NCBI GenBank assembly: GCA_964016885.1
Contig: OZ024740.1
Coordinates: 12,214,001-12,278,000 of the forward strand
From: Eledone cirrhosa
Taxonomy: Eukaryota
Length of the DNA: 64,000 bases
Direction of reading: 5' to 3'
The notes below the pieces were generated by a model. It was not told the DNA's origin and did not search any database. It saw only the letters and a list, made by a program, of their open reading frames with translations. The translations under genes and the position numbers were made by a program. Positions 29,574 to 61,600 of this stretch are shown in pieces (position 1 is the stretch's first letter; each line of letters starts with the position of its first letter).

Positions 29574-29710
29574 ATATGTATGTGTATATATATGTGTGTG
29601 TATATGTATATATGTATGTATATGTATGTGTGTGTGTATATATATATATATGGATATATGTATGTGTGGGTGTATGTGGGTGCACACAAGTGTGTGAGTG
29701 AGTGTGTTTG
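29048..29710. repeat. Compound (TA)n/(TG)n/(TATG)n microsatellite
   Basis: Alternating purine-pyrimidine runs read directly. Confidence 0.95.
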
Positions 29711-30375
29711 TGAATGTGTCTGTTGATTTTTGGAATATAGTTGAATAGTTTAAGAGAAATTTGAAGATAATGGTATGATATTCACTCAATATTTTGAATT
29801 GGTCTATAGAATTCTCTAGGCCTTTGTCACTTAGTAGAACCTTAAAGAATTTAGCTTTTAAAGAATCTCCCTTTTCCTTAAATCCATCAGTTTGCTCTAA
29901 TCTAGACATTTTTGAATGTATTCTTGGCGCGATCACTTTGGAAAATTTATTGTCTAGATTAGAGCAAACTCCTGAAGAGTCCGGTGCTCGAGTTTCCGAA
30001 GTTATTGGAAATCTCAAAATGCGGACGAAACCATGGTCGAGGTAAATAAATGTATTCTCTTTTCTCCTAGTTTATTTTACACCTAATTCTGTTTAATTAA
30101 CTGTATATCTGGGCGATTACGCTGTCGAAATATTCGATAAATATTCCGTCGCAGCCGACGCGAAGGGCTAGTTTCGGTTATTTGTTGGAGATTTCTTCAT
30201 AGAAGCCTTATTCTTATAGCCTGGTCTATTCGATTTTTTATATGGTTGATTATGCTAATTGGGAGAGGAAATGGTATATATTTTATCTGGTGATTCTATA
30301 GACATGTTTTATGATATATAGTCTGATTATTTAATTTATTAACTTTTCATTGAGCCACAAAGTGACCCGTTGCAA
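29711..30375 (-). pseudogene. Decayed coding-like fragment of unknown repeat origin
   Basis: About 100 complex-sequence codons (RFPITSETRAPD...NYSTIFQKS) run into the microsatellite. Upstream reading is broken by stops. No recognisable motif. Confidence 0.25.
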
Positions 30376-30700
30376 AACACGTATATGTATATATGTATAT
30401 ATATATATATATGTAAACCTTTATATATATATATATATATATATATCCTGTGATTATTCATGTTTATTTATGTTAATCAATTTCTAGTTATTATATATAT
30501 ATATATATATTCCCTATTCCAACGGCTTAATTTAAATGTACTGGGGTTTAAACCTCTCGGACACTAATTTGCATAATAGACCAATAATAAAATTAGTAAC
30601 CCCACTATCCGGGAGCTTCCAACCAACATGGTCGCATTCTTTAAGGGTATGTCAATATTTGTTTATAAAACTGATCTATATTATATTATATTATATATTA

Positions 30701-30765
30701 TATTTTATCTGATGAAAGCGCACCATAATTTGCTTTGGTATCCTTGAAATATGTATAATGAAATA
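30701..30765 (+). ncRNA. Minimal type I hammerhead ribozyme motif in a PLE-like 3' fragment
   Basis: tattttat-CTGATGA-(aagcgcacca..tggtatcctt, imperfect stem II)-GAAA-tatgta-TA-atgaaata. Stem I has 8 bp including one G-U pair, and stem III is near-palindromic. Confidence 0.6.
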
Positions 30766-30895
30766 AATATGGTTTTATAAATATAGTTTCCATTTGTTAA
30801 TATATTGTATTTTTACTCCAATAATTTGTTGAGTGATTTATATCAGTTATAAAAATATTTGCTTGTTGTGTCCCAACAAATTAAATATAACTTCT

Positions 30896-30967
<72 letters not shown>

Positions 30968-30974
<7 letters not shown>

Positions 30975-31322
30975 TGTATTTGCATTTATGTGTGTATATA
31001 TATGCATATATATGTATGCAGGTAAACAGAAATAACAAAGTAAATGACACGGTACAATGAAGAAATATATTAGTTTTATGCTTCATATAGTAGGGAAAGG
31101 ATATTAACGTTTCGGACGCTAGTCCTTCATCAGAAAATAGAATGAGAAATTAAAGATGAAGAACTAGTGTCCGAGATGTTAAGAAAGTTTCACTACTATA
31201 TCAAGCATAAAACTAATATATTTCTTCATTGTATCATGTCGTTTGCTTTTTTATTTCTGTTTACCTGCATACATATATATATACATATATATACACACAT
31301 AAATGCAAATACAAACATATAT
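30968..31322. mobile_element. Short inverted-repeat element with a hammerhead motif in the spacer (PLE pLTR-like)
   Basis: Arms ~30968-31097 and ~31189-31322 are diverged reverse complements. The element is preceded by (TA)n. Confidence 0.65.
31100..31140 (-). ncRNA. Hammerhead ribozyme core (degenerate stem I)
   Basis: Minus strand reads CTGATGA-a-ggac-tagc-gtcc-GAAA-cgtta, with an AACGTT palindrome at stem III. Confidence 0.55.
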
Positions 31323-31560
31323 CCTAAACGGACGGTAGTCCGTTTAGTAATATTGTTGTGGTCGTGTTTTCGTTGGCAATCGTCTGTTTACTACAGTACA
31401 GCGCGGCTCTACCTTATTTAACTGAGATAAAACTTATATGAGCATGAACAGTAGATCATTACGCATCTTTTGGCTTAAAAATCTAGAAATTTGGTCCAGC
31501 GGGAAAAAGTTTATAATCAAAGTTTGCTGATAAATATTGTGTTCAAGTGAGTGAGTAGTA
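31320..31560 (+). mobile_element. Helentron/HINE(DINE-1)-like terminus
   Basis: Terminal hairpin ctaaacggac-ggta-gtccgtttag, followed by HINE-core-like phrases (gaaatttggtccagcgggaaaaagtttata). No matching far end was found. Confidence 0.35.
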
Positions 31561-31604
31561 AGCGTGACGCTAGGGGAGGTAATTACGAGTCTCTCTCTCT
31601 CTAC

Positions 31605-31728
31605 GGGGTCATCCAGAAATGACGAATTTTTTTCGGCGGAACTCTTGTGATTGTGATTACGTTAGTCAAATGTAGTCAAATCGCCGAATCCCCTCCTCCT
31701 AATTGACTACGTCATTTCTGAACGGCCC
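31605..31728. mobile_element. MITE with GGG termini and 3-bp TSD (Zator-like)
   Basis: TIRs ggggtcatccagaaatgacg / cgtcatttctgaacggccc, with tac directly on both sides. Confidence 0.65.
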
Positions 31729-32174
31729 TACTTGCGTCAGTGTGAAACATTAATTCACTTTTCACTGCTAAAATGCTTTTTAAATACTTCGTTAAAAATT
31801 TATGTTTATTATCAAAGCTATTTTTTGTACCAATCTATCAATAGTTTGCGAAAATATAGGTAAACATGTGAGTTAAATTTTTTTTAATCGCATCGATCGC
31901 TTTGTCGCACCGACTGTGACACTGTCTGACTGTCTGTCTGACTGACACCTTTGTCGGACCGACACCTTTGTTCAAGCGAACAACTTTGTGTCACTGACAC
32001 CTTTGTTCGTGCCGGCATCTCTGCGAAACACCGATGACAACAACCAGACCAAAATTTCACTTCATTCTTCATTCTTCTTCAAGACCGATCGCCGACCGAT
32101 CGTATCGGTTGCTCTTCATATACCAGGTATTCAACAGATAGTTTACACTTCTAGTATTATTAACAGTCGTGCGA

Positions 32175-32290
32175 TTTTTTGTACCGATAGGTGCGAATAG
32201 TGCGCTATATTTTTGTACCGATAGGTGCGAATAGTGCGCTATATTTTTGTATCAATAGGTGCGAATAGTGCGATAGGTGCGAATAGTGTA
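32175..32290. repeat. ~34-bp tandem repeat (3+ copies) upstream of the SGNH gene
   Basis: tttttgtaccgataggtgcgaatagtgcgctata repeated. Confidence 0.85.
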
Positions 32291-32335
32291 CAATATTTTC
32301 TGAGATTTGCATCCACTAATTTCGCTTAATTAAAA

Positions 32336-33131
32336 ATGATGTTTCGCGGCTTTTTGATCGGCTTATTCATTTTTTCCATGGCACGGAAATGGAGTATTTC
32401 CATTTCGAATCAAAACTTTTCACTAAAATCGGGCAATTGGACTGATCAAATTCACATTCATGCCAGTTTTTACAAATTCATAATTAGAAATGTGGCGAAA
32501 TCGAATGACCAGAAGGTATAAAAATATTAATTCAAATGTATTTACTTATCATACCAACAAAAATACTTAGATATTTTGTATACCTGGGGCCCGTCAGGGC
32601 CAGGTAATGTTAATCGCCAACATTGTTATCTGTTGTCCTTTTGTGAAAGTATTGGTGGTTCATGTCGGCTCTAATGATCTGAATCCTCGTCGCACCGTTG
32701 GCACTACAAAGCTGTGCAAAGTAATACAATAATTTTTGCCCAAGTATATTTTATTAATCATTTATTTGTAAATTAAGGACAAAGTGCCCGTTCGAGGCAC
32801 AAAACCGGAAAAACAGGGGAAGAGTCTCTTTGCAAGGCTACAGAAAATAGCGGAAAAGCACTACTGTACACCCATTTTCTACAGTGGTGTCATTCCACGT
32901 CCACAAAGTGTAATTGAAAATAAAAATGACTTGGGCAAGAGAAATTCTCGTTTGGAAAAGTTTAATTACTGCATGAAAGAAATGATTCAAAAATTGAACT
33001 TACCCAATCTTCACAACATTGAAAATTGGTCAAAATTTGACAAATCTGACTTCAAACCAGATATGATTCATTTGAACAATGTTGGAAATCTTAAATTGAC
33101 ACAAATTTTTGCCAATGTTTTTGCCACCTGA
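32336..33131 (+). CDS. Spliced SGNH/GDSL-hydrolase-fold protein, 227 aa, exons 32336-32515, 32571-32720, 32778-33131
   Basis: Two phase-0 GT..AG introns (55 and 57 nt) join an open frame. It contains CIPGAR (block II), LVVHVGSNDL (block III), YSGVIPR and DMIHLNNVG (block V). AATAAA follows the stop. Block I reads LIGLF rather than GDS. Confidence 0.75.
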
Positions 33132-33311
33132 TCCTTGTTCTATGGCTGACTGACTAATTTTGTGACTTAATAAAATGTCATCATACTAGTAATGCACAAT
33201 GGTCATTTTTAAATTTAAATTTTATTAAATAGTTGTTGCTTGCATTGCCTTAAAATAGTAACAAGAATGTACACATACTTTTTAAAAATACATCATTATC
33301 AGTCAAATCAG

Positions 33312-33671
33312 TCAAATGTCACTAAAAGCCAGGTGGTCGATAACAACTTCTATAAGATTAGTTACATGCTCACACATTGGATCACCTCTCATCAATGGCA
33401 TTGGGTGTCTGAGATAATCGTGGAGATAACTGATGAAGTCACAAATGAAGTGATGGTCTTCCAGTGTGAACAACTCCCTATATCCATTGATATATGTGAT
33501 GGCTTCTGATTCATAGGTGCATTTTATGAGGAATTCCATGCATCCGATTTTCAGTGATTCAATGGGCATTTTATCAGAGATGATAAGGTATTTGACCACG
33601 TTTTGCTTTTTAAGTAAATTGGAGAGAATCACTGCAGTCAAAGTCATTTCTTTGCATGGGTTTTTGTCCAT
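33312..33671 (-). CDS. 119-aa protein with a BACK/SPOP-C-terminal-like helical motif
   Basis: LKKQNVVKYLIISDKMPIESLKIGCMEFLI matches the L..eNv...l..ad......Lk..c..fi pattern. Candidate 43-nt introns lie in both UTRs (33673-33715 with gtaagt..tttttag; 33249-33291). Confidence 0.5.
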   Translation of the reverse strand: MDKNPCKEMTLTAVILSNLLKKQNVVKYLIISDKMPIESLKIGCMEFLIKCTYESEAITYINGYRELFTLEDHHFICDFISYLHDYLRHPMPLMRGDPMCEHVTNLIEVVIDHLAFSDI

Positions 33672-33946
33672 TCTAAAAAGTTAAAATGATAAAGTATTAC
33701 TACTATATAACTTACATCTATTGTTGTAACACCATTGAAATGCACAAGTTTCACCAATTCACTATTATGTACTAATCATCTCAAATGCATTCATGATTTA
33801 CTAGCTTTGTCATTAAGCCAGTTGCCTCAACTAGATTGCAATTATACTCAAAAGAACTTTAAAATGTCAATCACTTGTCAGTAATTCACTATGATCATTT
33901 AATTATTAGATAGTTGTTGCTTGCATTGCCTTAAAAAATAGTAGAC

Positions 33947-35180
33947 CAGATAGAAAAATGCGTACAGCAAAAAAAAATAATATTGTTGGAATATAAACCT
34001 TTAAAAATACAGGACAAGAAACTAAAATAAAACTTTAAAAGAATTGGACAAGAAACTAAGATAAAACTTTAAAAGAATAGGACAAGAAACTAAGATAAAA
34101 CTTTAAAGAATTGGACAAGAAATAAAAAGTTTTACAATAATATTAGTGGCAAAATTTTTTTATTCGTTTCCTGTGCTATGCCCCAGTATCTTCTTGATTA
34201 GTGCATAATAATTGTCATGCTCTCTCTCATTGTGCGCTGCCCCTGAGCGGTTGGTTCTGGTTGGGGTTGGTTGGCTGAGCAGTTCTGCTCCGTCAGAATG
34301 ACCATTGCAAGAAGAATTGGCCGATGCAGCTGCAGGTCTCCTCCAAGAATGCACTTCTGGTCCCGCAACACCAGACGAAGATGGAGAAGACGACCGGGAC
34401 AAGATGTCGACTCTGACCACCGACTACGGCACCTCCCTCAACCACCGGTCCTCCCTCCCTCTGTCCCGTCATCCCTCCAGTCCTCCTGCTCCCCCTTCCT
34501 GTACCAGAAAGCTGTGGCACGCATTCATCTGGACTGCCGGACTTGAACTCAAGGACAAGATGCAAGGAGAAGATGGACGGGTTGGTCAAGATCAAGGATG
34601 AGCGGGACGACAAGACCGTCCGCTGCTGCTCAAGATCTGTGCTCATGGGCCCATGGGTCCATTCACATTATGCATGACACATGAGGCGTGTCGCCGAATG
34701 ATGAAATAGGGGTATGGTTATGGCCCAATTGGTGTTCAAACCAGGATCAAATGATCCCCCCCCCGGTCTGACGACGACCTCTGAATGTGGAACTCAGAGC
34801 CTATGAATGTGGAACTCGATTTTTTACCAATAAAAATTTTGCCACTAATATTATTGTAAAATTTTTTATTTCTTGTCCAATTCTTTAAAGTTTTATCTTA
34901 GTTTCTTGTCCTATTCTTTTAAAGTTTTATTTTAGTTTCTTGTCCTATTCTTTTAAAGTTTTATTTTAGTTTCTTGTCCTATTCTTTTAAAGTTTTATTT
35001 TAGTTTCTTGTCCTATTCTTTTAAAGTTTTATCTTAGTTTCTTGTCCTATTCTTTTAAAGTTTTATCTTAGTTTCTTGTCCTATTCTTTTAAAGTTTTAT
35101 TTGAGTTTCTTGTCCTGTATTTTTAAAGGTTTATATTCCAACAATATTACTTTTTTTTGCTGTACGCATTTTTCTATCTG
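33947..35180. repeat. Foldback inverted repeat (arms 33947-34164 and 34829-35180) with internal 34-bp tandem units
   Basis: The arms are near-perfect reverse complements. The unit ggacaagaaactaagataaaactttaaaagaata occurs 3 times on the left and 7 times on the right. Confidence 0.92.
34160..34646 (-). pseudogene. Decayed Ser/Pro/Arg-rich ORF in the GC-rich spacer
   Basis: Frame ends ...YYALIKKILGHSTGNE* with the stop inside AATAAA. Upstream TGA/TAG stops are explicable as C>T changes. A competing + strand ORF exists (34305-34601). Confidence 0.3.
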
Positions 35181-35229: not shown

Positions 35230-35325
35230 AAAATGTAAGACCCCGACGGCAGAGCTCAAGCCGTTTCGATGGCTATTTCTGCGTTATGGTCCATCTGGTT
35301 CCTTACCACAACTCCTTCATTATTA
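35226..35325. repeat. Fragment of the same short repeat family as 55035-55213
   Basis: Shares gaccccgac.gcagagctcaagccgtttcga and gcgttatggtccatctggttccttaccacaa. Flanked by (TA)n. Confidence 0.8.
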
Positions 35326-35336
35326 TATATATATAT

Positions 35337-36411
35337 ATGTAGGAGGTGAGTTTTATTGTAGTACAATAAAGCAATGCAGATATCGGATAAGAAGCACTCT
35401 ACAGTTTGTAGGACTGGAGTATACATAATATATAAGATCAAAAGATGGTTAAAAGAGTTCCATGTATTTTATTATGCGCATTTCAAAAACAAATGTCATC
35501 ATGCAATAATATTTGTGACTTCATCAGATAAAATAGGAAGACATGATATGAAGGTTAAAAAACACCTGTGAATAGTGCAGTTTTGAATCAACATATGAAA
35601 AGTAGTTTTAGATTGATGTGTGATATTGGGAAAACATATTTTTGAGTGGAGGGGGGTGGAAAGGATGAAAAAGAGGAGGAGATGAGAGTAAAAAGTAGAG
35701 GGGGGAGTATAATGAGGAAGGATGAGATAGGAGGAGAGATGGGTGATAGAGAGAGAGAGATAGCTTTTATAACTGAGAAAAATATATTGTTTTACATAGA
35801 GAGGTTGAAAAACCGTTGGAAGATAATGTATAAATTAAAATAATTTGAAAATTAACGAAGAGAAAAATAATGTAAAGTTAAGGTTTGTATATTGAAGGGT
35901 TTAATAATATGTGCGATGAAAAGAAAATGTTAATATGTATTAAGAATAATATTTAAGGGTTTAATAATATGTGCGATTGAAAGAAAATGTTAATATGTAT
36001 TAAGAATAATATTTAAGGGTTTAATAATATGTGCGATGGAAAGAAAATGTTGATATGTGTTATTTAAAAAAACAAAAGTAATGTAAGTAAGGATATATTG
36101 TGAGATGAGCATGAGTAAGTTAGATGAAAGGGAGAAAAAAATAATGAATTGAGGATGAATAATCTAACGTCAAAAAAATGTGTTTATGTTTACGAAGGAT
36201 TTTTTCAAGGTGATATAAGGTAAGAATATATTGTATTGTGTAATAATTGTTTCTATGTTAGGCACAGTGAGAAAAGGTACAGATTAGGGGTTAGAAATTA
36301 AAAGAAAAAGAAAAGAAAAGGAAAAGGAAGAAAGGGAAGTGATAAATAGGAGTGATATAGAATGAGTAACAAGTATTATATAATGTATAATAAATAACTT
36401 TGAAATAAGGT
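35337..36411 (-). repeat. 3' pseudo-LTR of the Naiad element
   Basis: Highly similar to 39046-40185. Contains 3 copies of a 60-bp unit. Confidence 0.93.
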
Positions 36412-36437
36412 AGAAAGATGGGTATATTTTTAAAGAA

Positions 36438-36527
<90 letters not shown>

Positions 36528-36566
36528 CTTTGAGAAAAGGATTCTAAATTGATAAAGTATTGGATA

Positions 36567-38963
36567 TTAGCTGTATACTTTGTGGAATGTTCTGTGGAAT
36601 TTATGCAAGCAGAGAGAAAACAAGTCAGTGCGTCTATTTATTATAGAATCTAAATTAGATATAATGGTAAATTTTTCATTTAGACAGAGATTGCAAGTCT
36701 TGGATAGAGAACTGTTCAAGTTTGAAGAAGCAAAAGAAACCTTTTTCCAAGAGATGTTATATTTAATATTTTTGTCTTTCAAGGACCATATGAGTTCTGA
36801 GAGAGCCGTGTTGGTTCTTTTAAGTTGGTATTTAAAAGACGAATGATGATTATAAAGACGAGCTTTAAAGGAGGTGGAAGTGGAGCCAAAATAGGTGAAG
36901 GAATTGGTGTCAGTTATAACTTTACATTCGTAGATTAAGTTTTTATCAAGACAATGGTTGTTGAGAGGACATTTATTTTTAACAGGGCAATTGCAATTGC
37001 GATTAGAGAGATTATTAACGAGTGACCTAGTGTTATCTATAGAAGGAATTGGATTGGAGAAGTTATTTGCGATAGGAATAATAGTTTCTTGATTTAGAAT
37101 GGGATTAAGAACATTTAGCGAAGTTGTGTTTGACGTTGTATTTGGGTTTGCAGAAATTAGCCTAGAGTTTACAATGACGTCGGGAGTACTATTACTATTA
37201 TTATGATATTCAGTGTTGGAAGGAAGAGATTTAGTATTTAGTATTTTATTGTTGTGTTTAGAGATAATGTTGGAAATGTTGGAGGATGTCGAATAGGAAA
37301 ATTTTATAGTGTGTTTGTTAAATATTTTACTATAGATATGTGAGGGAAGGAAGCATTTATTTAAGGCACTAAAGAATAATTTAGGAATATTATTATTAAT
37401 AGAGATGGAGAAAGGAGCATTATACCAGATTATGTTTTTGTATCTAGGTCTTTTATTAAAGTTATTGGAATGATCATGATTAATTATTCTACTGTGAGAT
37501 CTTCTAGAATTTATTTCTTTACTATATTTGATTTTATCAGGATAGCCGGCTTTAGAAAGCGCGTTATTATAGTAATTGGCGTTAGCATCAAAGATATTTT
37601 TATTAGAAGATAGGTTAGATATTCTTTTTCCAATATTACTAACTATAGCATTCTTAATATTAGTGGGGTGGTTAGATCTAAAATTAACATAATTTAGGTT
37701 CTCATTGTTTTTATGGTAAGGGTAATATAGGCCAGTGTCAAGATTAAGAGATACATCCAAGAAATTAGCTAGTTTGATGCTGTTATCAAATTCAATTTTT
37801 AAGTTATGTTGGTTAAAGAGATTACGTATATTGTTCTTAATAATATTAAGGTTAACTATGTTGCAATTTAAGATAGTAAAGAGTCCATCGTCACGATAAA
37901 TTCCACCGCGAAGTTGAGGAATTTTCCGACTCAAAGAGTTCGAAATAAAGATACCAATTAAATCTGTCAATTGGGATGAATCGGATGCTCCCATTGTGAT
38001 GTCGAAGTTGTTAGAGGTATCAGCTCTGGTCCAATATTCATTGTTGAATTCTAGGATGGTTTTAGGTGCGGTGAGAATGATGTGAAGTTCATCTGTGATG
38101 TCAGAATATTTAAATGCGAAAGATAGAGCATTGTTGAGAAGTGAAGGCGAAATAGAAGAATAGTAGCTGGCAATATCAAATTGAACAAATTTTAGTTTGT
38201 TTTTCTTATTCAATTTGTTGAACCAGCCAATCACTTCAGAAGTACCAAACCATAAATTTAAGTTCAAAGAAGAGCAATTAGAACGAACCTGTGGGATAAT
38301 TCTATCCAAGATGGCTTTACTAACAACCCCCAGATCGGATTTAGAGGGGGCGATTAATCTAACAGGTAGTTCAGTACGAAAATTGTTTTTGTGATCCTTG
38401 AGATTTATCCTCGGAGTTCTTGGGAGGAATGGTTCGGTCTTTTTTCCGATGCCAAGTTTTGACATAATCTCAGAGGCTTCAAAGTTTATGTATTCTAAAT
38501 TGTCATGGTTGGTTTTACGATATTTTTTCCTAAGTTCCTTTACGATAAGGTTGTTATAATTATCCTTGGAAATACCATATAAGTTATTGGTTTTGTCAGA
38601 GTGGACTAAAACATTTTTTGAGGAATTTAGGTTTGAAATTGTGTTCTTGAGATTTACAAGGTGCTCTTGTCCTTTGTAAGGGTATCTCTTGAATTTAAGA
38701 TTTTTTATAATTTTTGTTAACTCTTCCTCGAATTGCACTAGATTTTTGTTGGAAGGAGGATTTCTTTTAGAATTAAATAGATGATCGAGGAAGTTATGTT
38801 CTTTGGTATAGAAGTTCCCTTTTAGGCGCTGGTCATAGAAATAGGCTATCCATCTAAGTCTTCTTACAAAGGAGTCAGTTTTTTCAATTAGAAGTTTGGT
38901 GAATTCAGATTTACCAGGTATAGGAATGTCTTTAGTTGAATTGGTTATGTTGTAATAATCCAT
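36567..38963 (-). CDS. PLE reverse transcriptase with C-terminal GIY-YIG endonuclease (798 aa, uninterrupted)
   Basis: STKDIPIP N-terminus, SDKTNNLY, FDIASYYSSI, TMGASD, GIYRDDGL, FLDV, CxCx5Cx5C linker (CNCPVKNKCPLNNHC), LIY..YFG GIY-YIG, CNLCLNEK. Confidence 0.95.
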   Translation of the reverse strand: MDYYNITNSTKDIPIPGKSEFTKLLIEKTDSFVRRLRWIAYFYDQRLKGNFYTKEHNFLDHLFNSKRNPPSNKNLVQFEEELTKIIKNLKFKRYPYKGQEHLVNLKNTISNLNSSKNVLVHSDKTNNLYGISKDNYNNLIVKELRKKYRKTNHDNLEYINFEASEIMSKLGIGKKTEPFLPRTPRINLKDHKNNFRTELPVRLIAPSKSDLGVVSKAILDRIIPQVRSNCSSLNLNLWFGTSEVIGWFNKLNKKNKLKFVQFDIASYYSSISPSLLNNALSFAFKYSDITDELHIILTAPKTILEFNNEYWTRADTSNNFDITMGASDSSQLTDLIGIFISNSLSRKIPQLRGGIYRDDGLFTILNCNIVNLNIIKNNIRNLFNQHNLKIEFDNSIKLANFLDVSLNLDTGLYYPYHKNNENLNYVNFRSNHPTNIKNAIVSNIGKRISNLSSNKNIFDANANYYNNALSKAGYPDKIKYSKEINSRRSHSRIINHDHSNNFNKRPRYKNIIWYNAPFSISINNNIPKLFFSALNKCFLPSHIYSKIFNKHTIKFSYSTSSNISNIISKHNNKILNTKSLPSNTEYHNNSNSTPDVIVNSRLISANPNTTSNTTSLNVLNPILNQETIIPIANNFSNPIPSIDNTRSLVNNLSNRNCNCPVKNKCPLNNHCLDKNLIYECKVITDTNSFTYFGSTSTSFKARLYNHHSSFKYQLKRTNTALSELIWSLKDKNIKYNISWKKVSFASSNLNSSLSKTCNLCLNEKFTIISNLDSIINRRTDLFSLCLHKFHRTFHKVYS

Positions 38964-39045
38964 GTTGTAGAAGAAGAAAGAAGTAAAAGACCATCAAAAG
39001 GTATCCAATATGAGAGTTAGCGTTCAACCGTTAAGGAGCAAGTTA

Positions 39046-40185
39046 ATGTAGGAGGTGAGTTTTATTGTAGTACAATAAAGCAATGCAGATATCGGATAAG
39101 AAGCACTCTACAGTTTGTAGGACTGGAGTATACATAATATATAAGATCAAAAGATGGTTAAAAGAGTTCCATGTATTTTATTATGCGCATTTCAAAAACA
39201 AATATCATCATGCAATAATATTTGTGTTTTCATCAGATAAAATAGGAAGACATGATATGAAGGTTAAAAAAACACTTGCGAATAGTGCAGTTTTGAATCA
39301 ACATATGAAAAGTAGTTTTAGATTGATGTGTGATATTGGGAAAAAAAAATTTTGAGGGGGGTGGGGGGGTGGAAAGGATGAAAAAGAGGAGCAGATGAGA
39401 GTAAAAAGTGGAGGGGGGGAGTATAATGAGGAAGGATGAGATAGGAGGATAGATGGGTGATAGAGATAGAGAGATAGCTTTTATAAATGAGAAAAATATA
39501 TTGTTTTACATAGAGAGGTTGAAAAACCGTTGGAAGATAATGTATAAATTAAAATAATTTGAAAATTAACGAAGAGAAAAATAATGTAAAGTTAAGGTTT
39601 GTATATTGAAGGGTTTAATAATATGTGCGATGAAAAGAAATTGTTAATATGTATTAAGAATAATATTTAAGGGTTTAATAATATGTGCGATGGAAAGAAA
39701 ATGTTAATATGTATTAAGAATAATATTTAAGGGCTTAATAATATGTGCGATGGAAAGAAAATGTTGATATGTATTAAGAATAATATTTAAGGGCTTAATA
39801 ATATGTGCGATGGAAAGAAAATGTTGATATGTATTATTAAAAAAAACAAAAGTAATGTAAGTAAGGATATATTGTGAGATGAGCATGAGTAAGTTAGATG
39901 AAAGGGAGAAAAAAATAATGAATTGAGGATGAATAATCTAACGTCAAAAAAATGTGTTTATGTTTACGAATGATTTTTTCAAGGTGATATAAGGTAAGAA
40001 TATATTGTATTGTGTAATAATTGTTTCTATGTTAGGCACAGTGAGAAAAGGTACAGATTAGGGGTTAGAAATTAAAAGAAAAAGAAAAGAAAAGGAAAAG
40101 GAAGAAAGGGAAGTGATAAATAGGAGTGATATAGAATGAGTAACAAGTATTATATAATGTATAATAAATAACTTTGAAATAAGGT
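39046..40185 (-). repeat. 5' pseudo-LTR of the Naiad element
   Basis: Direct repeat of 35337-36411. Contains 4 copies of the 60-bp unit. Confidence 0.93.
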
Positions 40186-42872
40186 CTCACCGGGAATTGG
40201 GATCGCCGGAAATCGAACGGGATATCTGACGCCGAGGGGAAAAGCTTCATCCTTGGGATGAAAATATTTTCCCCTCTTCCGCACCACGTTACAATGGTGG
40301 CCTCAATCAAGTGGGGCGTCAGTGACTTGACGACTATGCGAGTACCGTTGCAATGCTTTGGTGGATGCAAGTTCCTTATTAGCATAATAGGACAGCCAAT
40401 CCTAAGCTTAAGAATGTGAGGTGGGAGCCCTAGGAGTTCAAGGGAATTTCATAACTCAACCGGATAATTAACGATATCGTCGGGGTCTGATGTCCGGTAG
40501 ATAGATTTGAAGAGGTGCTCTTTACCGGGAATCTTCTCAATCAGTTGCTCGTTAATAAAATTAACCATGGTATTTTTCGGAGCAAGGATGGCTCTTTCGC
40601 TGAGCCAATCGAGGTTTTTAAAGTTAGATGAGGCATTAGGAAATACTGCCTCCCAAAGGTCAGAAGGGCTGCTCACAATGTTGCACAGGGAGTCGATTGC
40701 TATGCCGCCCTTGTCATCCGCAGGGATCTTGTCCTCACCGAGTGCTAAAATGTTCTGAGCAAATGCTGCAGACATGTTGTCACCATGCAATTGAGCACAC
40801 ATATTTGTGCTCAGGTACAAACACTTCACCTGGAGCCACAACATGGACGACTTAAGGCAGGCACGCACTTCATCAGCTTTTGTCCCTTTGGGGATGATAG
40901 GCAGCGTTTGCCGAAAATCTCCTGATAGCAGAAGGGTTACGCCACCCATAGGAGCCGTAGAATTCCTAATGTCTTTCAGGGTCCTGTCCAATGCCTCAAG
41001 GGCACCCTTGTGTGCTATTGTGCACTCATCCCAAACAATGAGGCAACATTGTTTGAGAACCAGAGCTTCGTGTGAACTCTTGCTGATATTGCATGTTGGT
41101 GTCTCAGTTTTTACTAAATCCAAGGGGTGTTTAAAGGTTGAATGTGATGTCCTACCTCCCGGCAGCAAAGTAGCAGCGATCCCGGACGATGCAACGGCCA
41201 ACGCAATTTTTTTCTCCTGACGAATCTTAGCGAGAATCAATTTCGTTACAAAAGTTTTTCCGGTACCCCTAGGAGCATCAAGAAAGTAAATAACCCCAGT
41301 CTGATTTTGAACCGCGTCAATGATAGTTAAATAGGCCAACCTTTGGTCCGACAGAAGTTTGGGCTCATTTTCCTCTAAGTATTGGGAAAGAGATTCGATG
41401 TCATATGCTGTTCCTCGCATCAAATCCGGGGCCAACGTGTTAGCTTACTCTCTGACGGTTGACGGCAAGCCATTCATCGCCAACTCACTCCCACTCGTGT
41501 CAAGGAGGGCGTCCTCGATATCAATGAGTGCCCTGTTGTAGATAATGTCGCTGTAACCAACTTCCACTGAAGGATACTGCAGATGAGCCAGGCGCAGGAA
41601 GTCCTCAGACATGAAGTCTCTGTACTTGACCCATAAAGATTTGGGATCACCCAATTCACACTTTTGAAGCAAAATAGCAAAGAGTTCCCGTAGACCTTTA
41701 GGTGATTTCAACAAAGCACCCTCTGCTAAAGTGGAATCCCATTGCAAATCATCTTCCAAAAGACCACGCTTAAAGCAGGCTTCCCGGTACGTATCACATA
41801 TTTCTCCATCAACAGTTTTGACGTCCTGAAAACTTTGTGGGCCTACAACTTCATGCAGAAGAAGGTGGAGATGAAAGCATTCATGCTGACTTGGGGGCAC
41901 ATTGTAAACCCTTCCAAGACAGCTGTCAAATTTTACACCAGGATGTCTTTCAACAGTTTGACCTGACTTTCTTCGCACCCAAGTGCTTTTCGACCATATA
42001 AAGTAGGATGGAACCTGGGGTACACAATTGTTTGCGCAAATGTATCGAACTGGCAAAGTTTGAAGAAACCCGTCAGAGTGGTCTCTTTCGGATCGGCGGC
42101 CAACTTGGCGGCGGTTTGGTCCGTAAAGTAAACACTTTGCCCATTTTCCAAATGTACCGCAAGCTGTACAATGGCGGGGTGACGCTGATGTACTGCCCCG
42201 CCAGGTATTGTGACCTCGTCCCTGCTATTTTCAGCTTAAAATGCGAACATTGCGGCATCAGAACCCATATTTACATATTTATATATGTATTTTATCGGCT
42301 TGACGGAGTTGCAAAACTCAACGTTGATGTGGTGCCTTACTGCCCGCTTCTTCAAGAGAAGCGAGAAGTAAGGGACCACCCATCTATTGTCGACTTGACC
42401 TCCCTTTACTGTTGTGGTGAAGCCACCGCTCTCGGGCCGTCTCCGCCTGTACAGGGGGTACACGTCGCCACCAGTCTGAGTCTGGTCAACAAATTTTTGG
42501 AGGTATCCCTTACTGCACGACCCCCCCCCCCCCTTTCAGACACGTGTGATGCTCATTAGGACCCGACGCACACGGACCATGTTAGCTTTGACGATGTCAT
42601 GTAATTCCTGGTCAGTTGCTGGGTTGGGGATTTCAGCCGAAATGAAGCTGTCTATGGCATTTGAATTGATTTTATCAGCTAACCAAATCAAAATGTGAGC
42701 ATGTGGCAGCCCTCGTTTTTGCCATTCGACGGTGAACATGTCACATTTTACAGCCCCAAATACCTGACCCTTTTTGATTAAAGCCATGAGTTTAGCCAGT
42801 TTCAGTCTGAACACTCTGGCAATGAGGTCGTGTCTGTTCGAATAATTTTGCCCAAGAAAAAGTTCGCGGGTT
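40186..42872 (-). mobile_element. Decayed Helitron RepHel (HUH Rep + Pif1 helicase), truncated at both ends
   Basis: VEWQKRGLPHAHILIW, DNRWVVPY, FLDAPRGTGKTF, IVWDE, GDFRQTLP, CNGTR and QFPVRP are spread over several frameshifted ORFs. Confidence 0.95.
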
Positions 42873-43118
42873 ACATTCCGATTCGTATGTCTATAGCATT
42901 AATCTGTTATATGAAGTGTTATTTTGCGAGTTGTTATTTGCAATAAGCCGATTGAAAATACCCCAGATAAACTGTATGTCAATACGGAACGCTCCACTGC
43001 AGTGTTGTCATATAGGGATCGAAGAGCGACAGAGAGAGTAAAGCAGTTAAATTATAGGGAGAGGGAATGATCATGATCGATTTTTGCCCTTATTGTTGAA
43101 GCAGACGCAAGGGGGACA

Positions 43119-45706: not shown

Positions 45707-46736
45707 TTGAAGCAACACCTTCAACAGAGGAAAAAGGTTGGCAACCATCTTGCCCATGTTTATGAGCATGAAAAAAAAAAATATCATTAGAATAGCGACT
45801 GATCTGGAGGAGAGATATGGAATAAAGCCTGATATAAATCTCTCACCCAGAGAAATCGGAAGATCCTATTCAATGTTCAAACAAGATTAAAAAATTGACC
45901 AATTTACAGAAAAAGTTGTACATGGATACTTGAGGCATAAAACACAAACCATAGAGGGGATAAACCACTCAAAAAGCCTGGCATGGAGTTCCGACAAGTT
46001 TATGACATCACACCTTGAGGGATATCTCTATGCAATACAGGAACAAGAACTCCCTACCAAATATCTGCTGCACAAAAGAGGAAGGCCAGCAGCTGACAAT
46101 AAATGTAGGCTATGTAAAACAAAGATTGAGGATGTAAGCCACATTGTTGCCAGCTGCGAAAGAATGTCATCTCGCTACTACCTCCCCATGAGACACGATG
46201 GGATAGCTAGAACCATCTGGAACGCACTTCGGAAAACAAAATTAACAACAAACGAGGAAGAATATATTGAGACAGATGGCACTAAGGAATACTGGTGGAA
46301 CCTGAAAATAAAAACACCAAATTAAAGCACAACCGGCCTGATTGTTGTTTGGGACCACACATTGAAAACGTGTTCTGTTGTGGAGATCAGCTGCCCACTT
46401 GATGTAAACGTTGTCAGAAAAATACAGGAGAAGGAGGACATCTACGGACCATTGATGAGGAGTTTACAAATCCAGTATCCAAGATACACCTTTAGCTTCA
46501 TACCCATCATTATTGGAGCTACGGGTTATATACAAGTATGACTGAACTTGGATTTGCGGACAAAGAGCGCAGCTCCCTAATTCATAGTCTACAAATGGCT
46601 GCGATAGCTGGCACCTTCAAAATTTGCAAAACATTCTTGCGATTCAAGGGATGACAATTTCTTTTCTTTTACAAGCTTGCCACCAGGAAGGTGGCCGGTC
46701 AAAAAAAATATACTCGAAATTAAGAGAAAGAGATAA
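45707..46736 (+). mobile_element. R4/Dong-like RLE LINE, 3' fragment A
   Basis: AIQEQ, CRLC..EDVSHIVASC zinc knuckle, RHD, HNRPD..VVEISCP restriction-like endonuclease. Frameshifted. Confidence 0.85.
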
Positions 46737-46749
46737 CATACATACATAC

Positions 46750-49700
46750 AATGAACCTCCAAATGTAGGAGCCTATCTATTGGGCAAGTCTGTCTGAATG
46801 AGACAGATAAGATCATGAGAGTTGGGAAGGAACTCCTTGAAAATACTCCCTAGATGATAATCAAAGCTCACACCCAGGGAAATTGCCCAGCAATACCGCA
46901 GCGAATCTATGAATGAAGAACTGCATGCTTGTTAGCAAAAAGTCATGCAGAGTGAGAGTAATATAGATAAGCAAAGTAGTTTATCTTGGACCAACAACCG
47001 CTATATTGACTCCCACTTTGAGGGATATACTTTTGTAATCCAAGAAAAGGAAATCAATATAAAATACCTGATTCACAAAAGAGATAGGGATGCAGGCAAA
47101 ACACCTAGATGTGACAAGAAATGCAGACTCTGCAGAATTAACATCGAAGCTGTCACCCATGTCATAAGCAGCTGTCCAAAGATGTCATCATGGTACTATC
47201 TACCTATGAGGCATGATGTAGCGGCCAAAACACTGTACAATGCAATCCATAGAAAAGATAGTCCCGACAACCTGCCATCCCCTGCACATAATCATAGACT
47301 GGAATCAAGGTACAAATTGTTGTCCTTGAATGCACGTAGTATATGCAATAAGATACATCTTTTTGATTCCTATGTCAAAAGTATCAACCCTGACTTCATT
47401 ACAGTCACAGAAACATGGGCACATTCCTTACTCTGTGATGGGGTTTTCTAAAGACTGCATTAATTGTCGTTGTGGTGGTGTAATGGTCTACATTCGGTCA
47501 AAATTTTCGGCAATTCCTTGTGTTGATTTGAACCGGCAGGAAGTATTTTTCTCCGATATACGTTTGACCATGTCAACACTGCTACTTGGAGTTGTTTACC
47601 ATCCCCCAAATTACTATCAGGACACTAAACTTTGTGATATCCTCAGAGTTGCTGCCAAGAAAAAAGCCACTTATGTTTTTATTGCAGGAGACTTCAATCA
47701 CCATGAGAGTTACTGGGAAACCTTTCGTTGGCTGCAAAGTGCAAATGACTTCCTTGAGCTAGTGCTGGACTCAAGCTGGTCCCAAGTAGTCCCCTCCCCA
47801 ACAAGAGGTGACAACACTTTGGATCTACTCTTCACCACTACTCCTGAAACGGTTATTAGTGTTACAACTGAGGAACCTTTAGGTGACTCTGAGCATGCTA
47901 TGATCATTGCCAATCTGTCCCTCATGGGCAGTAACAAAAACCACAACCATCTCCAAACTGCTCACTTTGACTGGAATAAAGCAGACTGGAACTGTTACTG
48001 CACCGAGTTGCAACGTCCAAACTGGCTTGAGTTCTATGACTCTGGAGATGTCAACACTGTACTCCAGAACATCCTGAGCTCAATATAGACAGCTTGTGCA
48101 ATATCGGTGCCACGTAAGCAGAAAAAACATCCCAAAAGTGCAATTTCGGAGACTGCAGCAGTCCGTCTTGCCAGAAAAGAATGTTGTAATGCTGAACATG
48201 AGTACAAACTGCATAAATCAGATATCAATAGGAAGAGGCGAAATAAATCATCCAACCATCTCAAACAGGTGACCAAAAAGGCAGTGCTTCAATTTGAGCA
48301 GTGCATAGCAACCAGCCCTGACAGTAAGGTGTTCTGGAAGTATGTTCACTCAAAGCAGAGGCCTCACTCTCCAGTTGGTCCTCTTCGCAATCCCCACACA
48401 AGCCAGGTTACTGACGACTCCAAGGAATGCGCAAAACTCATTGCTGAATGCTATGCAGGCATTTTCACTATTGAAGACCAGAGTGTACCATCTCCACCAC
48501 CTATGACACCGGACTCTATTACAACCATGGAATTTACACCTGCAATGCTGCGACGTCACCTTAAAAATAAACGCAACCATGCCTCTCCTGGTCTTGATGG
48601 TGTTATGTACCTGCTTCTCAAACGTGGTGGGTACTTCCTTCTGCACCAGCTATTACGCTTCTTCCAATTCTGTCTGAACAACGGTGCTACTCCGGAGCAG
48701 TGGAAAACTGCCAATGTCATTCCTCTGTTCAAAAAGGGTGACCACACATCACCTGTGAACTATCGTCCAGTCAGTCTTATTAGTTGCATCGCCAAACTGA
48801 TGGAATCCTGTGTCAGAGAAACACTTTGGAACTTCTGGAGCTCTCACAGTCTTATCTGGCCCTCGCAAATTGGATTTATCCCTAACTCCAGCTGCTGTGA
48901 TCAGTTTATCGAGTTCCTTGAAGACATCACCCGGATCACTGACAGCGGCTCATGGGTGGATGTTGTTTACCTTGACTTTGCTAAAGCCTTCAATTCTGTG
49001 CCACACAAAAGACTTATGGCAAAACTTTCTGCAATGGGTGTGAAGGATGATCTTTTTAACTGGTTGAAGTCCTTCATTCTCAGTTGAAGAGAGGTAGTCA
49101 CGGTTCTAAGACAGCATTCTTCACTATATGAGATGTCATCTGGTGTACCACAGGGATCTGTTCTTGGCCCCCTTTTGTTTGTGGCCTATATTAATGACAT
49201 AGACGCCAACTTAAAGAATGCCACAGCACTGGAATATGCAGATGACATCAAGCTGTACCTTGAGATAAAAAGGACAGATCCTGAACACTATAGATCTTGC
49301 CTGCAATCTGACCTGGACACAATGCAACAATAGATCACAGACTGGCAACTCAAGCTAGCTGTGGACAAGTGCACCACCATGCATTTTGGGAGTAAAAACC
49401 CAGTGCCCACGTACTCCCTCCACAGCACTAATATCAAGAAGTCTTGTGAACGTGACCTGGGCATTATGGTCAGCAGCGATTTGCATTGGACGAAGTACGT
49501 CTCTAAAATTGTCAAGAAGGCTGAGGGTGTCTTAGCATCACCCAGCAAGACCTTTGTCAGCCACTCTCCAGCTATCTATTTAAAGCTGTATATAGCTATG
49601 GTGCGGCCACACTTAGAATTTGCATCACCAGTCTGGAACCCCTACTTGCTCAGAACATTGACCGCCTGGAAACTGTTCAGAGATGTGCAACCAAGCACAT

Positions 49701-50957
49701 ACCCTCCATCAGACACCTACCATACTCTGAATGCCTTGCTTCCCTGGGCATGGATACATTGAAGCTCCAACGTCTGGCAACTGACTTGGTAAACACCCAC
49801 AAAATTATTAACCATCTCGCTAACAACAACCTTGAGCACCTTTTTAATTTCCATGTATCTAAAACACGTGGGGATGCCCACAAAGTCAGAAAACAGCACA
49901 GCTCCCATGACTTTCAGAAACATTTTTTCACGCTCAGAGTTGCTGAAGCATGGAACAAACTGCCTGTATCAGTTGTTAGCTGTCGAGACACTGATCCTTT
50001 AAAACCTCCATGGAACAAACTACCTGCGTCAGTTATTAACTGTCAAGACACTGCATCCTTTAAAACCTCCATGCTTCCTCAGATTCGCCAACACTACACC
50101 TGATGTTCCCCCTCCATACACACGCACACATATATATCATGACTCATACACTATTCACTTCCCTGACATTTGTGTATTATTCTATGTACTATACATACAC
50201 CTTTGATGAGTTGTAGTGCACCTGAGCACTGTACACAATAATTTCATTATTATTACAATAAACACATTAAAAGCTACAGCAATGTGGAAGACATCCATGT
50301 ACATAATATGAAAGAGTACTGGTGGAATGTTCCAGCCAAAACCCCATAAAATGCAGGCATAACAGACAGACCAGATATTATGATATGGGACAGGGAAAAG
50401 AAGGTATGCACAGTAGTGGAAATTAGCTGTCCAGCAGATGCCAATATAATATCAAAGATTAGTGAAAAGGAGAATATTTATGCAGAACTGATGAGAAATC
50501 TGCAGATACTCCACCCTGACTATACCTTCAGATTTATGCCTGTGATTATTGGGGCACTGGGGTATGTTAGTAACTGCCTCAATACAAATCTTGAGAAGCT
50601 AGGCTTCAGAGAAACAGAAAGAACACAACTAGTTAGGAAACTACAAATACAATCCATTAATGGAACAGTAAAAATATGTAAAACATTCCAAAAATTCTGC
50701 ATCTAATAATTGCATATACACATGTACAATAACTGCATATACACATGTACAGATACAAAGCATTTACACATGTACAGATACAACTCAAAACATACACATC
50801 CACACATACAATAACATCCATATCGACACATGCAGACATACATACATATCTACCTAGTTGATGTTGTGTAAATTCTCATGAGAGAGTCTTGTGTCTATGT
50901 TAGAACCCGAGTCACTCTCTATTGGGAAACATTTGTGAAATTATAAAACCAGAAGAA
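46750..50957 (+). mobile_element. R4/Dong-like RLE LINE, 3' fragment B, split by a CR1 (parts 46750-47270 and 50255-50957)
   Basis: CRLC..HVISSC, RHD, then RPD..VVEISCP..IIGALG. Removing the CR1 and one acaa restores the frame SPDNKHIKS..EYWWN. Confidence 0.88.
47271..50254 (+). mobile_element. CR1-clade LINE ORF2 (APE + RT), pseudogenised, with acaa TSD
   Basis: LNARS, VTETW, GDFN, PTRGDNTLDL, NYRPVSL, YLDFAKAF, SGVPQGSVLGPLLF, YADD. (ATT)n tail. acaa at 47267-47270 and 50255-50258. Confidence 0.93.
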
Positions 50958-58326: not shown

Positions 58327-58622
58327 TGTTTTTATATTTTTACAGTAAAGTAGCATGTATAATTAACCAAATGGCAGTTCCTCTTTATCCATGTTTTTTC
58401 TGCAGACTTCGGCTTACAAAAGGTTCGATGGATCTCATCAGTTTAACCAGAATCGTAGAACATATGTCACGTACACTTCCCCCTTCTCACATCTCGACAA
58501 AACCACCAACATTACAACTGGCCTATCAAATGCTACCTGCTAATATCTGATTTATTAAGTGTTTAAAAAAGACCTCAAACCAAACAAAAAAACATATATC
58601 TTTCTCTGCCTCTTGCTTTTTA

Positions 58623-61600
58623 TAGAACTGTATTACTATAGGACATAGAACTGTATTACTATAGGACATAGAAGTGTATTACTATAGGACATAGAACTGT
58701 ATTACTCTAGGACATATAAGTGTATTACTGTAGGACATAGAAGTGTATTACTATAGGACAGAAGTGTATTACTATATGACATAGACGTGTATTACTATAG
58801 GACATAGAAGTGTATTACTATAGGACATAGAAGTGTATTACTGTAGGACATAGAAATGTATTACTATAGGACATAAAAGTGTATTACTATAGGACATATA
58901 AGTGTATTACTATAGGACAGAAGTTATTACTATAGGACATAAAAGTGTATTACTATAGGACATAGAAGTTATTACTATAGGATATAGAAGTGTATTACTG
59001 TAGGACATAGAAGTGTATTACTATAGGACATAGAAGTGTATTACTATAGGACATAGAAGTGTATTACTACAGGACATAGAAGTGTATTACTATAGGACAT
59101 AGAAGTCTATTACTATAGGAGATAGAACTGTATTACTATAGGACATAGAAGTGTATTACTATAGGACATAGAAGTGTATTACTATAGGACATAGAACTTA
59201 TTACTATAGGACATAGAAGTGTATTACTATAGGACATAGAAGTGTATTACTATAGGATATAGAAGTGTATTACTGTAGGGCATAGAAGTGCATTACTGTA
59301 GGACATAGAAGTGTATTACTATAGGACATAGAAGTGTATTACTATAGGACATAGAAGTGTATTACTATAAAACATAGAAGTGTATTACTATAGGACATAG
59401 AAGTGTATTACTGTAGGACATAGAAGTGTATTACTATAGGACAGAAGTGTATTACTATAGGACAGAAGTGTATTACTATAGGACATAGAAGTGTATTACT
59501 GTAGAATATAGAAGTGTATTACTACAGGACATAGAAGTGTATTACTATAAGACATAGAAGTGTATTATTATAGGACATAGAAGTGTATTACTATAGGACA
59601 TAGAAGTGTACTACTATAGGACATAGAAGTGTATTACTATAGGACATATAACTGTATTACTATAGGACATAGAAGTGTATTACTACAGGACATAGAAGTG
59701 TATTACTATAAGACATAGAAGTGTATTATTATAGGACATAGAAGTGTATTACTATAGGACATAGAAGTGTACTACTATAGGACATAGAAGTGTATTACTA
59801 TAGGACATAGAAGTGTATTACTATAGGAGATAGAACTGTATTACTATAGGACATAGAAGTGTATTACTATAGGACATAGAAGTGTATTACTATAGGACAT
59901 AGAACTTATTACTATAGGACATAGAAGTGTATTACTATAGGATATAGAAGTGTATTACTATAGGACATAGAAGTGTATTACTATAGGATATAGAAGTGTA
60001 TTACTGTAGGGCATAGAAGTGCATTACTGTAGGACATAGAAGTGTATTACTATAGGACATAGAAGTGTATTACTATAGGACATAGAAGTGTATTACTATA
60101 GGACATAGAAGTGTATTACTATAAAACAGAAGTGTATTACTATAGCACATAGAAGTGTATTACTGTAGGACATAGAAGTGTATTACTATAGGACATAGAA
60201 GTGTATTACTATAGGACATAGAAGTGTATTACTATAGGACATAGAAGTGTATTACTATAAAACAGAAGTGTATTACTATAGCACATAGAAGTGTATTACT
60301 GTAGGACATAGAAGTGTATTACTATAGGACAGAAGTGTATTACTATAGGGCATAGAAGTGTATTACTGTAGAACATAGAAGTGTATTACTATATGACATA
60401 GAAGTGTATTACTACAGGACATAGAACCGTATTACTATAAGACATAGAAGTGTATTACTATAGGACATAGAACTGTATTACTATAGGACATAGAACTGTA
60501 TTACTATAGGACATAGAAGTGTATTACTATAGAACATAGAAGTGTATTACTATAGGACATATAACTGTATTACTATAGGACATAGAAGTGTATTACTACA
60601 GGACATAGAAGTGTATTACTATAAGACATAGAAGTGTATTATTATAGGACAGAAGTGTATTACTATAGGACATAGAAGTGTACTACTATAGGACATAGAA
60701 GTGTATTACTATAGGACATAGAAGTGTATTACTATAGGACATAGAAGTGTATTACTATAGGACATAGAAGTGTATTACTATAGGACATAGAAGTGTATTA
60801 CTACAGGACATAGAAGTGTATTACTATAGGACATAGAAGTGTATTACTATAGGACATGGAAGTGTATTATTATAGGGCATAGAAGTGTATTACTATAGGA
60901 CATATAACTGTATTACTATAGGACATAGAACTGTATTACTACAGGACATAGAAGTGTATTGCTATAGGACATAGAAGTGTATTGCTATAGGACATAGAAG
61001 TGTATTACTGTAGGACATACAAGTGTATTACTATAGGAGCTAGAACTGTATTACTATAGGACATAGAACTTATTACTATAGGACATAGAAGTGTATTACT
61101 ATAGGACATAGAAGTGTATTACTATAGGACATGGAAGTGTATTTCTATAGGACATAGAAGTGTATTACTGTAGGACATAGAAGTGTATTACTATAGGACA
61201 TAGAACTGTATTACTATAGGACATAGAAGTGTATTACTGTATGACATAGAAGTGTACTACTATAGGACATAGAGGTGTATTACTATAGAACATCGAACTG
61301 TATTACTATAGGACAAAGAAATGTATTACTATAGGACATAAGTGTATTACTGTTGGACATGGAAGTGTATTACTATAGGGCATAGAAGTGTATTACTATA
61401 GGCCATAGAACTGTATTACTATAGGACATAGAAGTGTATTGCTATAGGACATAGCAGTGTATTGCTATAGGACATAGACGTGTATTACTGTAGGTCATAG
61501 AAGTGTATTACTATAGGACATAGAAGTGTATTACTATAGGACATAGAAGTGTATTACTGTAGGACATAGATTTGTATTACTATAGGAGCTAGGACTGTAT

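Follow-up and report, generated by a model that had tools for sequence, protein, structure and literature searches.

A probable internal-deletion copy of an HLE2 (Helitron2-type) transposon with a long 3′ foldback in the genome of Eledone cirrhosa

Introduction

Transposons of the HLE2 (Helitron2) type have been described as encoding a RepHel transposase with DUF6570 and without an endonuclease (EN) domain, with UCH as a reported add-on, and as having a 5′ hairpin, asymmetric terminal repeats and non-autonomous deletion derivatives (PMC3627910, PMC11417382; here and below, statements on published systems hold for those parts of the cited papers that were accessible). All of these features, the repeats being 13 bp long, recur in a family of elements from Eledone cirrhosa, one copy of which forms an island at positions 31322-35180 of a 64,000-nt stretch of contig OZ024740.1 (12,214,001 to 12,278,000, forward strand; hereafter the window, whose first letter is position 1). 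Unlike HLE2 elements with their T^T/C target (^ marks the insertion point), this family has no 3′ hairpin, an A^T target, TC...CTRR ends and a long 3′ foldback. A first-pass annotation of the window had taken the island for a fragment of a larger, possibly novel, cargo-carrying mobile or virus-like element. That it is cargo-carrying and mobile is borne out by its termini, its copies and a RepHel-encoding parent; rather than a fragment, it is very probably a complete, terminus-to-terminus internal-deletion copy of an HLE2 transposon whose parent resides in the same genome. Superfamily and cargo type are already known, and it is the set of ends together with the conserved long 3′ foldback that is unusual; the island thus represents a variant within an established superfamily, not a new system of genes.

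Several other described elements share parts of this design. The Phytophthora infestans proto-Helentron has an HLE2-clade RepHel without EN, a CTAG 3′ end, an A^T target and a 5′ stem-loop with short inverted repeats (PMC4067079, PMC11417382), and here too the 5′ stem-loop lies upstream of the left repeat, the layout also called HLE2-reverse. Unlike the proto-Helentron, which starts with TT and has its stem-loop 3.6 kb off, our family starts with TC and has a stem-loop adjoining the left repeat (PMC4067079); the host is an animal, the cargo is other, and the proto-Helentron accounts, with which we compare by description, mention no foldback in their accessible parts (PMC4067079, PMC11417382). 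FoHeli3-5 of Fusarium oxysporum, likewise termed HLE2-reverse, have a hairpin at the 5′ end only, and 20-40 bp from their 3′ end lies an inverted repeat, placed as it is here; they differ in their TGCCT start and CTCCTGT end, and what is accessible of their description includes no UCH, no such cargo and no long foldback (PMC5148889). With Helentrons and HINE/DINE-1 elements the family has in common subterminal repeats, an inverted partner near one end, internal tandem repeats and the F/Y-W-R Rep signature; unlike them it has no apurinic/apyrimidinic (AP) endonuclease, RGAPH instead of RGSPH and no TT target, and its inverted partner measures 130-350 bp and lies about 1 kb away, as against 7-12 bp and a few bases (PMC4067079, PMC7492417). 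Intron-containing SGNH hydrolase genes are known from fish Helitrons as texim genes; unlike these, as far as described, the SGNH gene here is predicted to be fused behind a NADAR domain and lies downstream of RepHel (PMC4021074). A HELIANO scan of 404 genomes did not find an HLE2 enzyme with Helitron1-type ends, as far as its account was accessible (PMC11417382), and this combination, reported from Phytophthora, with similar ends in Fusarium, is unusual.

Results

Searched against the genome, the island proved to be multi-copy with fixed termini, and a DUF6570 search led to RepHel loci that have its left end. Positions 31320-33300, queried against the 3.0-Gb genome of the same species, gave 959 candidates, and 37 of the 40 that were scored cover nearly the whole query at 93-100%. 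Exact-pattern counts across the genome gave 361 left ends, 393 inner inverted ends and 407 outer ends (0 for reversed-pattern controls), and the deletion junction of the window copy occurs in 95 copies. The window copy and 28 further full-length copies diverge by 0.5-1.4% from the majority state. The family is young and present in hundreds of copies.

Similarity between copies breaks off at identical bases on both sides: left ends read A^TC in 62 of 63 cases and right ends CTRR^T in 63 of 70, and every one of the 47 copies with intact ends and flanks is preceded by A and followed by T, which is not the canonical Helitron2 insertion between T and T/C. Empty sites were matched for nine copies; the four that are informative, lying outside simple repeats, all join without duplication, so that, as in Helitrons, there is no regular target-site duplication. 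The annotation had placed a foldback end at (TA)n; the foldback is real, and the (TA)n belongs to the host target, outside the element. The hairpin terminus that it had noted is significant in the window copy (z score -4.5; none of 200 shuffles equally stable) and in two further families (z -4.1 and -8.4), with one compensatory pair change in the sister family. A 3′ hairpin looked for in the last 60 nt was no better than shuffles (z -1.1 in the window copy, +0.4 in a second family). Short asymmetric terminal inverted repeats of the HLE2 kind are present (Table 1). The 5′-TC, the CTRR-3′ and the A^T target are those of HLE1, of which neither the RepHel nor the 16-20-nt hairpin about 11 nt from the 3′ end is present.

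The autonomous partner was sought through RepHel loci, for which 21 regions were taken, 17 with a RepHel of the window lineage and four with that of a second family. We found a parent with both ends, 12,628 bp long, whose first 1,165 bp align with the window copy, as does its sequence from 10,134 on; about 9 kb have therefore been deleted from the window copy, and because this deletion removed the transposase, the island is a short non-autonomous copy. Internal deletions in the derivatives spare both ends. The parent carries, in order, RepHel-UCH, a predicted five-exon NADAR-SGNH gene and the BTB/BACK-like open reading frame (ORF). Its RepHel combines an HUH Rep with a Pif1 helicase, as expected of Helitrons, and its domains follow one another as DUF6570, Helitron_like_N, PIF1, UvrD_C_2 and a C-terminal UCH; no Exo_endo_phos match indicative of an AP endonuclease was found in a scan covering all but the last ~30 codons of the ORF, which ends in UCH. 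DUF6570 is the HLE2 marker of HELIANO (PMC11417382, as far as accessible); searched against the genome, it gave 54 matches, several of them about 3 kb downstream of left ends among those listed. A search with PF14214 gave 150 matches, and among the places listed none was beside a listed left end; the four that were included in a tree are HLE1. In a Rep-region tree of 29 rows (22 homologues were returned, none of them a protein of the Phytophthora or Fusarium elements, one homologue without the motif was omitted, and there was no named Helitron2 reference) the family groups with HLE2 proteins, separate from the four HLE1 rows (100/100) and from EN-bearing RGSPH oyster proteins; its neighbours are RGAPH proteins, often bearing UCH, Rhodnius prolixus records among them. 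On DUF6570, the Rep motif and the EN-bearing homologues we place the RepHel in HLE2 by its sequence. The annotation had named Helentrons among known carriers of SGNH genes, and this proved the right branch, HLE2 being the Helitron2/Helentron clade. An Atlas search with the N-terminal part of RepHel gave no usable match, and a metagenome scan returned 24 loci, four of which were examined and lacked a long inverted repeat, the closest two being 8-9 kb contigs that may lack ends. At one locus (L145:3605) an inverted 3′ terminus caps the left of a RepHel fragment, leaving two outward-facing 3′ ends about 10 kb apart.

Seven of the DUF6570 matches lie in open frames of 2,230-2,245 aa, and the four examined belong to a second HLE2 family of ~12.8 kb (C5:5.37 Mb, C14:27.66 Mb, C2:253.9 Mb and C3:72.98 Mb). 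Its copies are ~99% identical, with an open 2,230-2,245-aa RepHel-UCH ORF, A^TC...CTAG^T ends, a long 5′ hairpin and a 220-bp foldback; as judged from these features it is the best candidate for an active element.

Within the island (Table 1), the CpG-rich, repeat-laden block of the annotation was confirmed, with a CpG observed/expected ratio of 1.32-1.48 against 0.31-0.81 in five other stretches and with 17- and 34-bp repeats; it is likely to be the transposase promoter and 5′ untranslated region. What had been described as a three-exon SGNH gene has SGNH-like exons and is as a whole a chimera: its first exon consists mostly of RepHel codons 1-47 (32336-32476), the deletion having fused codon 47 in frame to a headless SGNH exon, directly past the G-D of the GDS motif. 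SGNH hydrolases are marked by the blocks GDS, G, GxND and DxxH. All four are seen across parent and window copy together, GDS being absent from the window copy, whose exons match Pfam Lipase_GDSL_3 below the cut-off (E 0.0045). The nucleophile Ser at the junction is kept in 24 of 29 copies, and the fusion frame is open in 16 of 29. Exons 2-3 gave no match in a homologue search, and a PDB sequence search with exon 2 gave only a weak match to an 'ORF1-encoded protein' (4c1b, E 0.46), which we take to be a LINE (long interspersed nuclear element) esterase. The annotation had put introns at 43-81 nt; the three defined here, of 55, 57 and 43 nt, are candidate GT-AG introns (all three GT-AG in 26 of 29 copies), with no 81-nt intron among them.

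In the parent, the SGNH exon opens with a canonical GDS motif and NADAR exons lie upstream, with Pfam E values of 0.0032 and 0.075 for consecutive parts of the profile and of 5.7e-4 and 0.0019 at two other loci, all below the cut-off. NADAR acts in the removal of ADP-ribose. From the predicted five-exon model, with introns of 55, 217, 54 and 57 nt, one of the two parents examined would yield an uninterrupted NADAR-SGNH protein of 335 aa. SGNH genes have been described on fish Helitrons (PMC4021074) and NADAR domains in Gypsy and Tx1 retrotransposons (PMC12477816), and a search of the open-access literature found no report of NADAR in Helitrons. In contigs from four runs of a single study, possibly of the source sample and so not independent, the parent sequence hangs as a loose end at 32480, more breakpoints lie at 32949, 33533, 33726 and 33802, and depth climbs towards the inner arm; no spliced joints appear in these contigs, which says nothing for or against expression.

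The annotation had also called a convergent BACK-like gene. The 119-aa ORF is convergent; the label stays a lead, since neither Pfam nor PDB gave a relevant match and a homologue search was empty. Its nearest Atlas clusters are BTB/BACK (0.90-0.93), below the level of reliable recognition, and its single-sequence fold scored 49.7 in the predicted local distance difference test. The frame is open in 21 of 29 copies. The ratio of nonsynonymous to synonymous change among copies, uncorrected for transition bias, is 0.89 for SGNH (53 changes) and 0.62 for the BACK-like ORF (21 changes), so that changes in both look near neutral. The SGNH remnant, having lost its N-terminus and NADAR domain in the deletion, is likely to be a passenger in the window copy, as is the BACK-like ORF.

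The duplicated 3′ modules of the annotation correspond to a ~33-nt motif found at 33228 and again at 33908, and its foldback end to two arms (33947-34159 and 34832-35180). In a DNA fold the inner arm pairs with the outer arm at 210 of its 213 bases, as far as the final base. A decayed S/R-rich ORF that had been proposed between the arms (34160-34830) found no confirmation as coding sequence, having no Pfam match and no homology to the sister-family loop. An inverted copy of the 3′ end, 130-350 bp long and about 1 kb inside the right end, occurs in four lineages: the window family, a sister (RepHel ~85% identical), the second family (48% identity with the sister) and, as the fourth, a decayed locus (50-55%). 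The loops are unrelated between families. Comparison of the final 90 nt gives 96-100% likeness for the two arms of one family, as against 88-90% or 59-62% across families; the arms have therefore been homogenised or rebuilt after the families split. Derivative size classes recur near 1.5, 1.95, 2.35 and 3.6 kb, those mapped breaking upstream of the inner arm. Of the 52 copies with both ends, 47 retain the inner end; among the five armless junctions, two were counted genome-wide and each proved single-copy. Two readings were rejected: flip-flop of the loop, which is inverted in 0 of 62 copies and in fixed orientation in all 62, and a stand-alone miniature inverted-repeat transposable element, the end counts being near 1:1:1 and two candidate pairs proving to be variant inner arms. 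A single-copy 1-kb derivative (L179) lost the sequence between the 5′ 13-bp repeat and the direct copy of that repeat within the inner arm. The sister-family loop (L132:1971-2585) holds a 205-aa open frame that has a PHD-like Cys/His pattern and no relevant Pfam match.

Table 1. Features of the window copy, in window coordinates
Feature	Position	Strand	Remarks
Whole non-autonomous HLE2 Helitron copy (very probable)	31322..35180	+	A^TC...CTG(G)^T; final G absent in window copy
5′ terminal hairpin, 10-bp stem, 4-nt loop	31324..31347	+	Fold compared with shuffles
5′ asymmetric terminal inverted repeat, 13 bp	31346..31358	+	Matches 35139-35151
CpG-rich block with 17- and 34-bp repeats	31860..32335	+	Directly upstream of parent RepHel start
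First 47 RepHel codons	32336..32476	+	98-100% identical to ORF start in four parent loci
Junction of ~9-kb internal deletion	32476..32480	+	Removes G-D of SGNH GDS motif; Ser codon is Phe here
SGNH hydrolase remnant	32480..33131	+	Predicted exons 32480-32515, 32571-32720, 32778-33131; introns 55, 57 nt; GxND and DxxH blocks
119-aa BTB/BACK-like ORF (lead only)	33312..33671	-	Predicted 43-nt intron just upstream (33673-33715)
Motif beside inner arm	33908..33945	.	Conserved in part in two other families; second copy 33228-33262
Inner arm, inverted copy of 3′ terminus with four 34-bp repeats	33946..34159	-	95-98% complementary to outer arm
GC-rich loop between arms	34160..34831	.	Family-specific; no recognisable gene
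Outer arm and 3′ terminus with eight 34-bp repeats	34832..35180	+	Holds 35139-35151 repeat; no significant local hairpin
3′ asymmetric inverted repeat	35139..35151	+	29 nt from end

The surroundings of the island contain other repeats. To its right, 35230-39960 is likely a Penelope-like element, with an 808-aa ORF (36567-38993, minus strand) between long direct repeats that have hammerhead-like cores at 35527 and 39236; Pfam gave no reverse transcriptase (RT) match, and we take the ORF to contain RT- and GIY-YIG-like motifs. To its left, the repeats of 29700-31322 are others again; hammerhead-like cores lie among them at 30709 (+) and 31133 (-), and positions 30964-31322 contain an inverted repeat of 168 bp. 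A decayed HLE1-type RepHel (RGLPH) at 40065-42898 (-), with PIF1 and Helitron_like_N matches, is unrelated to the island. Near-identical HLE1 Rep matches recur every ~100-200 kb elsewhere in the genome (C20:3.5-5.2 Mb, C27:13-15.5 Mb, C19 and C16), which suggests a very large tandem array or segmental repeat. LINE remnants with zf-RVT, endonuclease and RVT_1 matches occupy 45891-50100, and satellites of a 64-bp unit (x455, with extreme strand skew) and a 23-bp unit (x235) fill 1-29045 and 58622-63998. An Rfam scan gave nothing but microsatellite-driven microRNA matches below the cut-off.

Discussion

The island probably spread by rolling-circle copying, with RepHel provided by another copy. 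From established Helitron biology, RepHel would nick at the 5′ T, its helicase would peel away the plus strand, and this strand would be cut past CTGG, circularised and inserted between A and T. Because the short 3′ hairpin is absent, we propose the foldback as the mark of the end: tentatively, the displaced strand could fold via its 200-350-bp arms into a stem with the last nucleotide at its base, the stem and the 13-bp asymmetric repeats together marking the end point. Such a long folded-back tail may be an undescribed stop signal for copying, and the short inverted partner of the subterminal repeat in DINE-1 and oyster HINE elements may be the same structure in small form; a search of the open-access literature found no description of a long foldback, the accessible parts of PMC6431247, PMC13085455 and PMC12273014 being silent on it. 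A more far-reaching and rather doubtful proposal is that these elements constitute an undescribed animal HLE2 subtype (RepHel-UCH, TC...CTRR, A^T) in which a long, co-evolving foldback replaces the 3′ hairpin and a kilobase-scale stem-loop sets termination, while NADAR-SGNH would counter host ADP-ribosylation or acylation marks on the single-stranded DNA or proteins of the element.

Several observations weigh against this interpretation of the island and its foldback. The Rep motif (RGAPH) has A where Helentrons have S and Helitrons L, with FWR present before the motif. None of 18 loci of the window subfamily has an intact RepHel, and the two sister loci share a stop; the intact RepHel ORFs examined belong to a family with different ends. 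Flanking direct repeats of at least 4 nt occur in 19 of 47 copies, against 13.2 +/- 1.8 for shuffled pairs; the excess is mostly (TA)n context, the target often being (TA)n, and repeats of 6-8 nt other than TA in three of the 47 may be occasional target duplications. The inner end is missing from five of the 52 two-ended copies, two of these having been counted genome-wide; the foldback samples are non-random, having been picked for similarity or for patterns that were missing; and the fourth lineage, a single decayed locus, has an inner arm that ends ~3 nt before CTAG is reached. What links the foldback to a role is correlation only, which fits a needed signal without proving it.

There is a substantial possibility, if somewhat short of even, that transposition does not involve the foldback, which would be what remains of an old inverted self-insertion or duplication of the end, its arms kept alike by gene conversion or hairpin repair. 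Self-insertion in opposite orientation has been proposed for Fusarium Helitrons (PMC5148889), unrelated repeats in the same genome often form long inverted repeats, and private mutations are not common to both arms of a copy. A relic is harder to reconcile with the persistence of the foldback at one position in four lineages that have diverged and whose loops are unrelated, with recurrent deletion size classes that all break upstream of the inner arm, and with the failure of either tested armless junction to amplify.

It is improbable that the element has the opposite polarity, as in DINE-1/HINE, reading subterminal repeat, inverted repeat, second subterminal repeat and 3′ stem-loop with a reversed RepHel, so that the foldback would be an overgrown 5′ inverted repeat. 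The order of signals on the minus strand fits the DINE-1 layout (PMC4067079), and some elements of the Helitron2 and Helentron types do carry RepHel in reverse (PMC4067079, PMC3627910). Against this, the plus strand, which also codes for RepHel, ends in CTRR before T in all four lineages, and TC after A starts the three lineages with multi-copy left ends; the minus strand would start with CC and end with GGA, and the target is A^T, not TT.

We regard it as quite unlikely that either the fusion of RepHel leader and SGNH or the BACK-like ORF is expressed to the benefit of the short copies or of the host. In favour stand the position of the in-frame fusion behind what is probably the transposase promoter and the fact that the fusion frame, the Ser at the nucleophile position and the BACK-like frame are each kept in most of the 29 copies; the near-neutral substitution ratios, the loss of G-D from the motif, the Phe that stands for Ser in the window copy and the amplification of shorter derivatives without these ORFs all speak against a function. 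A Penelope-like or Terminon retroelement, or an endogenous virus fragment, as entertained by the annotation, would draw on GDSL esterases as known Terminon cargo (PMC6431247) and on the Penelope-like repeats with hammerhead-like cores that flank the window copy, and is excluded by the RepHel-encoding parent: both ends are fixed to the nucleotide and kept through internal deletions, the flanking repeats are not common to other copies, the Terminon/Penelope hallmarks (an RT gene, a 3′ hammerhead motif, 5′ truncation) are lacking, with no hammerhead-like core within the element, and viral contigs, when scanned, gave no relative of the Rep region.

As an internally deleted HLE2 copy, the island itself is a passenger without a transposase. 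Elements of its kind would likely be missed or mis-oriented by end-based finders. Their interest lies in how HLE2 transposases recognise ends, which is directly testable here: the elements are young and present in hundreds of copies, a related family has an open 2,230-aa transposase in several near-identical copies, and the foldback lends itself to a clear deletion and compensation experiment.

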